Shown here: one piece after another, positions 10,048-24,243 of the stretch
How positions within the stretch are numbered: the first letter of the stretch is position 1
How the letters are laid out: each line of letters starts with the position of its first letter
DNA from: Verrucomicrobiia bacterium
Lineage (GTDB): Bacteria; Verrucomicrobiota; Verrucomicrobiia; Limisphaerales; UBA1319
Reading direction: 5' to 3'
Assembly (NCBI GenBank): GCA_963664225.1
Contig: OY760937.1
Span: forward strand, 2,176,001 to 2,240,000
DNA length: 64,000 nt
Notes under the pieces: generated by a model
Databases searched by the model: none
What the model was told of the DNA's origin: nothing
What the model saw: only the letters and a program-made list of their open reading frames with translations
Position numbers and translations under genes: made by a program

Positions 10048-10104
10048 GCGGAGGAAGCGCCGGGCGCAGGACAAAATTCTTCAGCATGCCGAAAAAGGCT
10101 TTTA

Positions 10105-12079
10105 GTAGAGTAGGCGAAATGGACGGATTGAATGGCCGTGGCCAATGACCGTCGCATTTCGCCCCTCATCGAACCGGACAGGCGGTTTTCCCGCATCCGG
10201 CTCTCCGGGGATCATACGTTGCATCGCTTCGACGTCATCGTTTCCATGCCGCATATTCCGGCATTTGGTATAAACCATAACGCTCATAGAGATCCTCCTT
10301 GGGGTATGTGGACCATTGCGCCCGACTACATCCGTGTTTGCGCCACAACCATCGTTGTAACTTGCTGCTGACGTATTCGTTCATCTGGCCCATCACCTTG
10401 GTGCTGTTCCCGTAGTGAAAGTAACCCTTCCAACCTTTGAGTTTCTTGTTGAGCTCGGGAATCACCTCTCCGATATCACGCCATAGCGTGCTTCGGTTGA
10501 GTTTCTCCCGAATCCCGTCTCGAAACTTCTTCTGGCTCTTGGGATGGGGTTCCACATGCGGATATTTCCATTTCCCCTTCCCCTGTCGCATTGTTAGCGC
10601 GAATCCCAAGAATTTGATGCCATCCTGGCGGAGGTCCACCAAGCGGGTCTTCTTCTCGTTGAGCACTAACTCGCGTTGCTTCAGCCATCGTTCCAGTCGT
10701 TCCATCAGTTCCCGTCCCTGCCCCGGCTGTCCGAGTATCACGAAATCATCCGCGTATCTCACCATCACGGGTTTGAGTTCGCAGCGTTCGTTGACTTCCC
10801 AATCCAACTGGTTGAGGTATGCATTGGCTAAAATCGGCGATACAACCCCGCCTTGCGGAGTCCCCCGTCGATTCTGACCTTGCCCCCCCTTTGTCCCGCC
10901 TTTCCCTGTGTCGCTTTGCGGTTCATTCACGGGCGCGCGCAGCCATCCTGCGATCAGCTTGAGAATTGTTCCATCGCTGACCCGCTTGGCCACTATGCGC
11001 AACAAACGCCTGTGGGGAATGCTGTCAAAATACCCGCTTAAGTCCGCGTCTATAACTTCGACGCGTCCTGTCAGCGTAGCCTTCTTGATCGCCTCCATTG
11101 CTTGGTGGGCATTGCGTTTGGGATGATAGGCGTAACTGTTCGGATGACTATCGGCTTCCAGAATCGGCAGCAATACAATCACCACCGCTGTCTGCACCAC
11201 CCGGTCTTTCACTGTCGGGATGCCCAGGGGTCGCAGCTTCCCGTCTCCTTTTGGTATATACACACGCTTCACCGGGCTTGGCCGATACTTCTTCGTGCGT
11301 AACTCCTCCAGCAGTTGGTTCCGCCATTGGTCCCAGGCTTCGTCGCTGGCAAGATAGACGTCGCATGTCTGCCCGTCGATCCCAGCCGCGCCATTGTTGT
11401 GCGCCACGGAGGCCATTGCCGTTTCCAGCACGTCCTTCCGCAGCAGTTCTCCGTAGAGGCTGTAAAACCGATACTTCGGCTCAGCCTTGGCTTTGCAATA
11501 TAGCGCTCGCTGCAGCTTTTGAACTTTTATCGGGGTTGTTATCCGTTGAAAAAGTGTTTCCACTCCCTCAAGGCCATCTCCCTGTCCCTCGCTGTTTTGA
11601 TTCGCTTCGATCCAAGTGCCTTCCCTTGGCTCCGCCGGGGTTTTGGTCGCCCCAGCTTCTTCGCTACTATGGAAGACTCCGACTTCTCTGGCTGCCCGTG
11701 CGGCCTCGGAGGGTGTTCCTCCTTGCACCGGCGGTTGAGGCTTTATCGCCCCGCCTCCAGAGATCTCCCAGCTTACCTTGGTTTCCCTTCCTGTCGTGTC
11801 GCCCTCGCTGACTCCGCCGGAATCAACAGCGCCCATTTGACGATTTGATGACGCCGCGTTTCTGCCTTCGCCGTTCGGGTAGCGGCTCGGCTTACCGGTT
11901 ATTTCGGTTTCGGAGCTCATTTGATGAGGTTTACTTTCGTTACGACCCGACAGTTCTTTCAGCGTCCCGCTTGTGGTTCGGCCTCACGGCCTCGTCCCGG
12001 ACGCTGCATTTCGGTCGTGAACCGTCTAATTCGACCGGCGGGACTTTCACCCACGAGGCTACCAATTTCACTGGCGCAC
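10105..12079 (-). mobile_element. Group II intron, full length (1975 nt)
   Basis: 5' end GTGCG at 12079; domain V GAGCCGGATGCGGGAAAACCGCCTGTCCGGTTC right after the RT stop; domain VI ends CCTACTCTAC at 10105; EBS1/EBS2 match the 5' exon. Confidence 0.95.
10235..11920 (-). CDS. ltrA: Group II intron reverse transcriptase/maturase, no C-terminal endonuclease domain
   Basis: RPLGIPTVKDR, DADLSGYFDSIPH, GTPQGGVVSPILAN, RYADD, FLGF, maturase GWKGYF. The real start is probably near 11563. Confidence 0.93.
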   Translation of the reverse strand: MSSETEITGKPSRYPNGEGRNAASSNRQMGAVDSGGVSEGDTTGRETKVSWEISGGGAIKPQPPVQGGTPSEAARAAREVGVFHSSEEAGATKTPAEPREGTWIEANQNSEGQGDGLEGVETLFQRITTPIKVQKLQRALYCKAKAEPKYRFYSLYGELLRKDVLETAMASVAHNNGAAGIDGQTCDVYLASDEAWDQWRNQLLEELRTKKYRPSPVKRVYIPKGDGKLRPLGIPTVKDRVVQTAVVIVLLPILEADSHPNSYAYHPKRNAHQAMEAIKKATLTGRVEVIDADLSGYFDSIPHRRLLRIVAKRVSDGTILKLIAGWLRAPVNEPQSDTGKGGTKGGQGQNRRGTPQGGVVSPILANAYLNQLDWEVNERCELKPVMVRYADDFVILGQPGQGRELMERLERWLKQRELVLNEKKTRLVDLRQDGIKFLGFALTMRQGKGKWKYPHVEPHPKSQKKFRDGIREKLNRSTLWRDIGEVIPELNKKLKGWKGYFHYGNSTKVMGQMNEYVSSKLQRWLWRKHGCSRAQWSTYPKEDLYERYGLYQMPEYAAWKR

Positions 12080-12243
12080 ACCCGAAATCCGAAATAAGAA
12101 TGGTCAAGACGATGCAATGCTTTGAGACAGCCATGATTTGCAATCGGCGAAGGTGTATTAAACCAATACTCCACAGCCGGTTTCAAACCATGGATGGCCA
12201 AATGATTGCGTCAGATGGGCCGTTCCTATTTCGGATTTCGGGT
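12080..12243. mobile_element. 164-bp MITE, copy 1
   Basis: 17-bp perfect TIRs ACCCGAAATCCGAAATA / TATTTCGGATTTCGGGT; TTA on both sides once the intron is removed; near-identical copy at 23902..24065. Confidence 0.9.
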
Positions 12244-12286
12244 TTAACCAACATGGAAGTATATAGGCCGAATGAACACTGTCGGC

Positions 12287-12592
12287 TCAAAAAACTGAAC
12301 GCGCGATCTTCCCTCTCGCCCTGCGACGCACGAGCGGGGAGCGGACAGGATTACTTCTATCCAAACCGTCCCAGCCGCCTGCTTTGATCTCCTTTTTTAG
12401 TTTTGCGGCACAGCCATCTGCTGTCGCATAAGTGGAGTATCGCCGCCGATGGCGGCTGCACGCAGCGTCATAATAAAAAACCATGGAACGGCTTTCCCCG
12501 TCGTGGGTTTCTTTGTAAATGGTGATGTTTGTGGGATCGCCGGTGACATGCACCAGAAACTCCTCTGGTTCAGTGATCGCATTTTTTTTCAT
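12287..12592 (-). pseudogene. Possible truncated N-terminal fragment of an island integrase
   Basis: Starts about 140 nt from the tRNA 3' end and points away from it; ITIYKE...VFYY...RHRRRYST..A is reminiscent of integrase arm-binding N-termini; no catalytic domain follows. Confidence 0.35.
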
Positions 12593-12733: not shown

Positions 12734-12810
12734 TGGAGCGAGCGAAGGGATTTGAACCCTCGACAATCACCTTGGCAAGGTGACACTCTACCAGGCTGAG
12801 TTACGCTCGC
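12734..12810 (-). tRNA. tRNA-Gly (GCC)
   Basis: GCGAGCGTAACTCAGCCTGGTAGAGTGTCACCTTGCCAAGGTGATTGTCGAGGGTTCAAATCCCTTCGCTCGCTCCA: cloverleaf, GCC anticodon, encoded CCA. Confidence 0.97.
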
Positions 12811-23607: not shown

Positions 23608-24243
23608 CGCGACGTCCAAGGCTTCTGTATGGAGTCCCGTCTTTAGACGGCGCAGCGCTCAAAAGCGAGGGGTCATGAATATTTTTAACCCCCTCGATAA
23701 TCCGAAAACCTTCGCGAATTCCCCAAGCTCACCGTTGCTCTGTCTCCCATTCAAACAATCCCCCGCCCATCCCACCTGCTTGCGCGTCCAAACCGCAACT
23801 CGTAGCGCAGGTTTCCAACCGTATCGCAGATTTCCAATCTGCTAACCGTCTCACATTCACAGAGCGCACCACAAAAACCTCCGATCCGCGGAAGCCCTTT
23901 AAACCGAAATCCGAAATAAGAATGGTCAAGACGATGCAATGCTTTGAGTCAGCCATGATTTGCAATCGGCGAAGGTGTATTAAACCAATACTCCACAGCC
24001 GGTTTCAAACCATGGATGGCCAAATGATTGCGTCAGATGGGCCGTTCCTATTTCGGATTTCGGGTTTAATACCCCATTGAAGCCTCACCCAACCGAACGA
24101 ACCACCCACGCCATTTCGTAAAACCCACATTCTTCCTGTCTCCCATTCAAACGATTCCCTCCAGGCATCCCGGCAGGGATCGCAGACCCTTTTCCAACGA
24201 ACGCCTGCCTCCCGATCCTACAAATCGCAATCAGAAGCTCCAT
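23608..24243. repeat. Single partial unit of the mosaic REP-like repeat, interrupted by MITE copy 2
   Basis: Near-identical to about 45545-46090 and 47775-48200. Confidence 0.9.
23902..24065. mobile_element. 164-bp MITE, copy 2
   Basis: Almost identical to 12080..12243; empty-site alleles GAAGCCCTTTAATACCCC in sister repeats reveal a TTA duplication. Confidence 0.9.

Follow-up and report, generated by a model that had tools for sequence, protein, structure and literature searches.

Why does a complete group II intron stand flush against the end of a small transposable element, and what directed it to that position? The question is raised by a locus in the 64,000-nt window analysed here (C1:2176001-2240000 of the 5.78-Mb single-contig genome of a Verrucomicrobiia bacterium). 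Read 5′ to 3′ on the minus strand, which carries all features of this locus given below, the window presents a 164-bp miniature inverted-repeat transposable element (MITE, 12243-12080), a 1975-nt intron (12079-10105) and then TAAAAG. Our results indicate that this intron, which lacks an endonuclease (EN), is very probably active, or was so very recently, and retrohomes site-specifically to the junction between elements of the IS1380 insertion sequence (IS) family and their flanks. A preliminary description of the locus had placed GTGCG at 12079 against the MITE, ACCCGAA in the loop of a GCCG/CGGC stem and a second, 9-bp match to the exon in the same domain, and all of these coordinates and matches proved to be exact.

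The intron is complete (10105-12079), beginning with GTGCG (GUGCG in the RNA) at 12079 and ending with ..CTAC (UAC at the RNA 3′ end) at 10105. Its domain I (D1) core matches the Rfam model group-II-D1D4-6 (RF02005) at 11802-12047 (54.9 bits, cut-off 49), and domains V and VI (D5 and D6) match RF00029 at 10105-10205 (49.3 bits, cut-off 40). In the D5/D6 alignment the AGC triad is present and the bulged A lies 7 nt from the intron 3′ end; with these ribozyme ends, triad and bulged A it belongs to the mobile bacterial group II introns. The ribozyme part measures ~640 nt, and a reverse transcriptase (RT)/maturase of ~440 aa is encoded at 10235-11563 (the GTG start at 11563 is uncertain). The protein keeps the YADD motif, scores 357 bits against TIGR04416 (cut-off 300) and contains the RVT_1 (1e-34) and GIIM (7e-14) domains only. 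It stops 25 residues past GIIM with no further Pfam match, so the DNA-binding/endonuclease (D/En) domain is absent.

By BLAST the genome holds 19 full-length copies of this intron, the window copy among them, 100% identical over 1975 nt, and no fragments. Tabulation of the intron flanks across the genome, a check that the preliminary description had proposed, placed the same 13-mer, TCGGAKTTCGGGT, directly before 19/19 copies; the sequence that follows the intron is TAAA in 10/19 and TTAA in 9/19 (TWAA overall). Exact 13-mer sites number 51 on both strands of the genome, compared with 0.34 expected at random, and 19 of the 51 are occupied. The association of the intron with these sites is far beyond chance. 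A near-miss scan gave 209 sites at no more than 2 substitutions from the T-variant of the 13-mer, and within these, introns beyond the T-variant occurred only at four IS ends that carry the G variant. By subtraction from the 209, none of the ~158 true near-miss sites (1-2 mismatches) is occupied, and these empty sites include MITE ends with a single mismatch.

The 13-mer consists of the terminal-repeat tip (12 nt) of an IS1380-family IS and of the MITE, followed by the first T of the target duplication. The IS is 1534 bp long, is present in 5 identical copies with 13-nt terminal repeats and codes for a DDE transposase of 472 aa (NF033539, 227 bits, cut-off 180; PF13701); the DDE transposase, the terminal inverted repeats and the short target duplication place it in the IS1380 family. 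The MITE at 12080-12243 has 17-nt perfect terminal repeats (12243-12227 and 12096-12080), is ~73% self-complementary across its whole 164 nt and recurs in the genome as 19 near-full copies plus fragments (BLAST). It is thus short, non-coding and multicopy and has terminal repeats in common with an IS, as a MITE should. The tips of MITE and IS are alike at 12/13 bases and differ at position -8, and the subterminal likeness between MITE end A and IS end c is weak (8/300 shuffles reach the same score).

The 5′ exons of the 19 copies fall into six kinds. Eight copies follow MITE end A and five MITE end B, three follow IS end c and one IS end e; the remaining two are at solitary sites, namely d (2.065 Mb) and f (3.974 Mb). 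With 13/19 copies at MITE ends and 4 at IS ends, the earlier proposal that the EN-less intron has specialised on the terminal inverted repeat shared by a MITE of many copies and the IS from which it derives is well supported. Three levels of nesting were observed at C1:828002-831676 and 2984654-2988329, where the 1534-bp IS interrupts a MITE at the TTAA in its centre and itself carries the intron at one end; the second of these loci lies 1.7 kb from dnaA. Another MITE, with a minus-strand site at C1:264553, is split by a different, 1858-bp insertion (264642-266499), and the sequence next to its outer end is neither TWAA nor intron.

The exact position of the cut relative to the element depends on how the target duplication is read. 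In the window the T at 12080 and the 3′ exon TAAA (10101-10104) together make up the right-hand TTAAA of the target duplication; its left-hand counterpart occupies 12243-12247. The flanks fit a 3-bp TWA duplication with ACCC..GGGT element ends, and they equally fit a 4-5 bp TTAA/TTWAA duplication with CCC..GGG ends; uninterrupted paralogous copies of the window flanks fit both, and the MITE at 5.611 Mb fits the 4-bp duplication only. IS1380 elements in ISfinder have CC ends and make a 4-5 bp duplication, which accords with the 4-5 bp reading. The statement that the intron abuts the outermost base of the terminal inverted repeat therefore stands for the repeat as such, while its outermost A/T is equally part of the 4-5 bp duplication, and the cut can equally be placed within the duplication, 1 nt past the element itself.

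The DNA adjoining the MITE (10056-10104 and 12244-12341) belongs to another short repeat family. Both flanks run contiguously at ~2.940 Mb, 2.354 Mb, 1.450 Mb and further places, and therefore the MITE had inserted into a repeat. A joint 10100->12243 in contigs of public runs, which skips MITE and intron together, was considered as an empty allele and rejected, as it stems from paralogous copies of this flanking repeat family.

A candidate for the determinant of site choice is base pairing between the intron RNA and the exon. The first exon-binding site (EBS1), ACCCGAA at 11874-11880, lies in the 9-nt loop of the GCCG/CGGC hairpin and pairs with exon positions -7 to -1, that is, with the intron-binding site IBS1 at 12080-12086. 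Together with a linker (12087-12088) and the beginning of IBS2 (from 12089), IBS1 makes up the 13-nt 5′-exon core at 12080-12092 that is common to all 19 sites. The relatives that we found comprise five introns with 76-78% nucleotide identity (L032-L036) and an intron of 695 nt without an open reading frame (ORF), L003. In all five homologues for which the 5′ exon is available (L032, L034, L035, L036 and L003) the loop aligned with EBS1 is altered and complements the final 7-8 nt of the intron’s own exon. EBS1 is established by this covariation, and EBS1-IBS1 pairing covaries with the target. Close homologues in unrelated sites had been named beforehand as the outcome that would tell against the proposal. 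Such homologues exist (L032-L036), yet their EBS1 loops have changed to fit the sites in which they reside, and EBS-driven targeting is therefore supported rather than refuted.

The case of the second exon-binding site, EBS2, is less simple. The stretch CCGAAATAA at 11907-11899 is the perfect complement of exon positions -18 to -10 (12097-12089). In a consensus fold of 7 sequences this candidate EBS2, CCGAAAUAA (11899-11907), occupies a bulge of 12 unpaired nucleotides, which is bounded by a conserved stem and a CCGG stem and lies on the 5′ side of the hairpin that bears EBS1 in its loop; one stem flanking the bulge shows a compensatory change (U-A for C-G). In this fold the two exon-matching segments are not both taken up by pairing within domain I, which had been the second outcome named as adverse. 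The nine nucleotides would pair with MITE end A and would leave -8 and -9 as a 2-nt linker; position -8 is the sole variable base across the 19 sites. Simple counting gives a chance of ~3e-4 for a perfect 9-bp complement. The bulge is the most variable stretch in the alignment of the 77%-identical homologues, and its flanks are conserved. In other RF02005 introns the corresponding bulge pairs over 6 bp with exon positions -11 to -6 (2/5 copies, genome G063) or, in the second RF02005 intron of the window genome, through CUC with exon GAG (4/4 copies).

Other observations speak against a functional EBS2. In the five close homologues the bulge gave no run of at least 5 Watson-Crick pairs with the intron’s own exon beside IBS1; the IS ends and sites d and f retain just 4-7 contiguous EBS2 pairs; and a single-sequence fold pairs three of the nine nucleotides (CCG) in a weak 4-bp hairpin, this fold being itself no better than shuffles (z = -0.11). 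Retrohoming could accordingly be real and the CCGAAAUAA match a by-product of low-complexity sequence, with EBS1 and position +1 carrying the RNA specificity and positions -9 to -13 read by the protein or not at all. The repeat tip is indeed a tandem TTTCGGA/TTTCGGG, and a conserved CCGAAA stands in the intron just before the match; the Rfam consensus retains this first CCGAAA, part of which falls within a stem. Bulge-exon pairing is, moreover, inconsistent across close homologues, contiguous pairs number just 4-5 at sites d, c and e, and Nagy et al. (PMC3753933) reported that IIE and IIF introns self-splice without need of EBS2-IBS2 pairing. A perfect complement of 9 bp at the above chance, situated in unpaired sequence that varies strongly among 77%-identical homologues between conserved flanks, is what one would not expect of a by-product; the 6-bp pairing of the G063 bulge and a 2-nt linker as in RmInt2 point in the same direction. 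We therefore regard the low-complexity explanation as unlikely, and a functional 9-nt EBS2, for which the complementarity and the position in the fold argue, as plausible and somewhat favoured. In terms of the preliminary description, the position, the perfect complementarity and the unpaired setting of EBS2 hold, and covariation is absent in the five close homologues.

The site might instead be recognised by DNA shape, as in IIC introns, which recognise terminator or attC hairpins: the MITE would fold into a long hairpin on single-stranded DNA and the intron would insert after the 3′ arm. The ~73% self-complementarity over 164 nt fits such recognition. So does the direct contact between insertion site and the 3′ arm of an inverted repeat in two of the four homologues with enough upstream DNA (L035 and L036), and the closest solved protein structures are of class IIC (7uim, 183 bits; GsI-IIC, 166 bits; a third, 160 bits). 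The IIB protein TeI4h scores nearly as high, at 160 bits, so that these PDB matches do not separate IIC from IIB. A nearby partner arm is missing at 6/19 sites, namely at sites d and f and at the four IS ends, whose arms are separated by 1.5 kb. MITE ends with one IBS1 mismatch are empty though their hairpin is kept. IIC introns have a CGC triad in D5, in contrast to the AGC found here, and the ribozyme is of ~640 nt, not ~400. An EBS1 of 7-8 nt that covaries is unlike the short IIC pairing, and the IIC combination of a very short EBS1, no EBS2 and a hairpin just upstream is not what we find at the 19 sites. Recognition of DNA shape is thus very unlikely to explain the targeting, and pairing through EBS1 remains the preferred explanation.

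The target duplication encloses MITE and intron together, as it would if both had transposed as one composite unit and the association were due to the transposase. This is extremely improbable. The intron-bearing MITEs are 92-100% alike and carry identical introns; therefore the introns arrived after the MITEs had diverged, whereas a composite would not combine identical introns with MITEs that differ by up to 8%, in both orientations. IS ends or solitary sites replace the MITE at 6 loci, no terminal repeat is present at the far end of the intron, and the strand pattern of the introns tracks replication.

This strand pattern was evident on the whole chromosome. The intron copies form blocks, with five on the plus strand at 0.05-0.95 Mb, six on the minus strand at 1.66-2.19 Mb and eight on the plus strand at 2.99-5.61 Mb; the chance of the six minus copies being contiguous on the circle is 7e-4. 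The strand switches fall at the GC-skew inflection near 1.3 Mb, the only clear one, and at dnaA (2.990 Mb); a long-ORF strand proxy agrees weakly with them. Strongly positive skew extends from 3.7 Mb across position 0 up to 1.3 Mb. Exact 13-mer sites in the orientation of their block are occupied in 18/24 cases vs. 0/23 in the opposite orientation (Fisher p = 4e-8), four exact sites beside dnaA having been left out of this count. A second MITE in the window itself (23904-24065, minus strand) carries no intron: its exact end is on the non-permissive strand, and the end on the permissive strand has one mismatch, at exon position -2. Taking the inflection as terminus and dnaA as origin, the intron sense strand corresponds to the lagging-strand template in 18/19 copies; the copy at 2.986 Mb, 4 kb from dnaA, is ambiguous. 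With origin and terminus so placed, the insertions show the expected bias toward the lagging-strand template.

Owing to the symmetry of the terminal repeat and the palindromic duplication, the same site occurs at both ends of an element, on opposite strands. The strand rule would allow one intron-bearing end per element. Among the elements with exact sites at both ends, 16 (12 MITEs and 4 IS) hold one intron, none holds two and 3 hold none. The preliminary description had proposed two homing sites per element; both types of end are indeed used, and no element carries two introns, in keeping with the strand rule.

Taken together, these results suggest the following course of events. The intron RNA would recognise the outermost 12 nt of the repeat together with the T that opens the TTAA/TTWAA duplication, with the 7-nt EBS1 pairing with exon -7 to -1. 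EBS2 would probably pair from -10, over 9 bp at MITE ends and at least 4 bp at every site, with -8/-9 as linker, and the invariant T at +1 would be the partner of an EBS3. Lacking an endonuclease, the RNA would reverse-splice into the lagging-strand template at the replication fork, where the primer of the nascent lagging strand would start the copying. Whatever the orientation of an element, exactly one of its ends would be usable. As the intron would come to lie outside the element, the IS or MITE would stay unbroken and would not carry the intron along when it moves, and each new transposition would create a fresh empty site. Indirect signs of splicing and retrohoming are the identity of the 19 copies, their intact ORFs and the existence of cognate sites still unfilled.

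Several observations weigh against this scheme. At two of the nineteen sites, d and f, the likeness to the repeat extends over just 13 and 16 nt, respectively, and no remainder of an element could be detected. If the origin lies beyond dnaA, the strand of the copy at 2.986 Mb is the wrong one. The introns themselves served in part to define the strand blocks, and the origin and terminus are deduced; between 1.3 and 3.7 Mb the GC skew stays flat, and the two replichores would differ greatly in length (~4.1 and 1.7 Mb). Contigs of four public runs contained no joint that removes the intron alone, and no splicing or mobility was seen. As to sites d and f, they are too exact for chance, and we rejected them as MITE relics on finding no significant likeness beyond the 13-16 nt (53/300 and 21/300 shuffles, respectively, score as well). 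Flat skew and a dnaA at 2.99 Mb imply either very unequal replichores or recent large rearrangements, and nineteen identical 2-kb introns could drive the latter.

Homing of an intron to the inverted repeats of a transposon is already published for RmInt2 and ISRm17. RmInt2 is a class D, EN-less intron of S. meliloti, and all its copies lie within ISRm17 inverted repeats according to Martinez-Rodriguez et al. (2014, PMC4615759). This paper and a review (PMC5894124) describe two sites per IS on opposite strands, ensuring that one is on the lagging strand, and the former (PMC4615759) demonstrates the lagging-strand bias and the 2-nt linker experimentally. The window intron and RmInt2 are alike in lacking an endonuclease, in targeting IS inverted repeats with an opposite-strand pair of sites and in the lagging-strand bias; if the candidate EBS2 is functional, they would also share the 2-nt linker (-8, -9) between IBS1 and IBS2 and the tolerance of as few as 4 EBS2 pairs. 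They differ in position, RmInt2 lying inside the repeat and the window intron at or 1 nt past the last base of an intact element, as well as in copy number (7 vs. 19). Further differences from RmInt2 as described there are the MITE as main target (13/19), the IS1380 carrier, the RF02005-type D1 and the lack of head-to-tail tandems.

RmInt1, the S. meliloti intron of ISRm2011-2, is likewise an EN-less specialist of a multicopy IS that uses EBS1, EBS2 and EBS3 and the lagging-strand template. It has a single site inside the IS, and its insertion blocks the spread of the IS (PMC5894124), whereas the site of the window intron is symmetrical, at the boundary and non-interrupting. The IIC introns of terminators and attC sites resemble the window intron in being EN-less and intergenic, in lying just 3′ of an inverted repeat and in having the closest solved proteins. 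They use a DNA stem-loop and a very short IBS1 with no EBS2, according to PMC3753933 and PMC4424553, in contrast to the 7-nt covarying EBS1 and the exact 13-nt site found here, with 6/19 sites having no hairpin partner. IStrons, in which a group I intron is fused to an IS (PMC4227781), also bring a ribozyme and a DNA transposon together; they are a single chimera moved by the transposase, while here there are two elements and the intron is moved by its own RT.

New in the present case are the different intron lineage, the MITE as main target and the insertion in the target duplication instead of inside the element. Searches of the published literature gave no report of MITE ends or IS1380 elements as homing targets of group II introns. 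Nor did they give one of insertion at an element-duplication junction that leaves the carrier intact, of a related intron in a multicopy palindromic repeat, or of a link between repetitive extragenic palindromic sequences and such introns.

The relatives raise the possibility that the target preference is broader than one IS. In L035, a 77%-identical relative with a rewritten EBS1 (genome G191), the 3′ arm of an inverted repeat of 26 nt serves as the 5′ exon and directly abuts the insertion site. The 75-nt core of this repeat has 44 matches in G191, 27 of them with at least 91% identity. Of 10 loci fetched, 2 run into an intron (one of them, L164, being the query’s own), 1 reaches a contig end and 7 are uninterrupted. 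L036 also adjoins an inverted-repeat arm, and that element is single-copy in its own genome, while L034 and L003 showed no flush repeat at the insertion site. It is tentatively possible, on three cases, that the lineage specialises on multicopy non-coding palindromic repeats generally and not on one IS. EBS1 and the 9-nt EBS2 would then be tuned to the terminal repeat of the MITE rather than to that of the IS. If so, a third tier of parasitism would exist, running from transposase to MITE to intron, in which the carrier is never damaged and sites are re-supplied by each transposition.

Both elements were also looked for in relatives. The MITE was not found in the 20 relatives searched, which include a same-genus genome (93% completeness). 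The search for the intron in that genome and the other relatives gave only short D5 matches and two partial relatives. The ORF-less intron L003 (also L016; G034:C102:13087-13781, minus strand) is a derivative of ~695 nt of a related intron, 71% identical over D1-D3 and 84% over D5-D6, with an EBS1 that matches its own exon.

With 51 sites on one chromosome, about three quarters filled in one orientation and none in the other, and with single-mismatch sites empty, the genome constitutes a clean natural targeting experiment. It indicates that an EN-less intron can stay harmless by residing between genes and outside its carrier, that the symmetry and target preference of a DNA transposon can be exploited by a retroelement and that a MITE can serve as the main niche of an intron. 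The intron is also a candidate for a highly specific, replication-dependent targetron, and its strand pattern offers an independent marker of replication direction where GC skew is uninformative over 2.4 Mb.

Two other RF02005 introns were noted. One is the second RF02005 intron of the window genome, with 4 copies of 70.4 bits each at C1:1676575-1676808, 2331182-2331415 (minus), 5161454-5161687 and 5605822-5606055 (minus) (L117, L128, L135 and L138). It has AAGCG where GUGCG should align, its targets have ..TGAG..TCTGG in common, and its EBS1 loop pairs with exon bases ending 2 nt upstream of AAGCG, pointing to a 5′ splice site that may be shifted or non-canonical. The other, in genome G047, is present in 10 copies (L113, L126, L133, L136 and L156-L160) in repeated coding-like sequence. 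Within this one genome the EBS1 loop and exon occur as the variant pairs UGCCG/CGGCA, UUCCG/CGGAA and UGCCUA/TAGGCA, which looks like retargeting in progress.

At the protein level, a plasmid search gave 41.7% identity for the best plasmid-borne relative of the RT/maturase and none above. Relatives in Bradyrhizobium, at 42% identity, carry another D1 type (RF02003); a motif scan for the 5′ ends of these introns gave nothing, and we dropped them as a guide to the EBS2 position because of the differing D1 type. Head-to-tail arrays of an RF02003-type intron were noted at two loci (L058 and L062) of Bradyrhizobium genosp. P BDV5111 (NZ_CP188195.1), with 3 and 2 D1 matches spaced 1926 nt apart. The protein of this intron shares 42-43% identity with that of the window intron, and the arrays recall the tandem insertions reported for RmInt2.

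Upstream of the MITE, a sigma-70-like promoter at 12285-12258 was considered and rejected; it is weak and the only one, and shuffles give as much. A tRNA gene (65.9 bits) lies at 12737-12810, ~500 nt upstream of the MITE.

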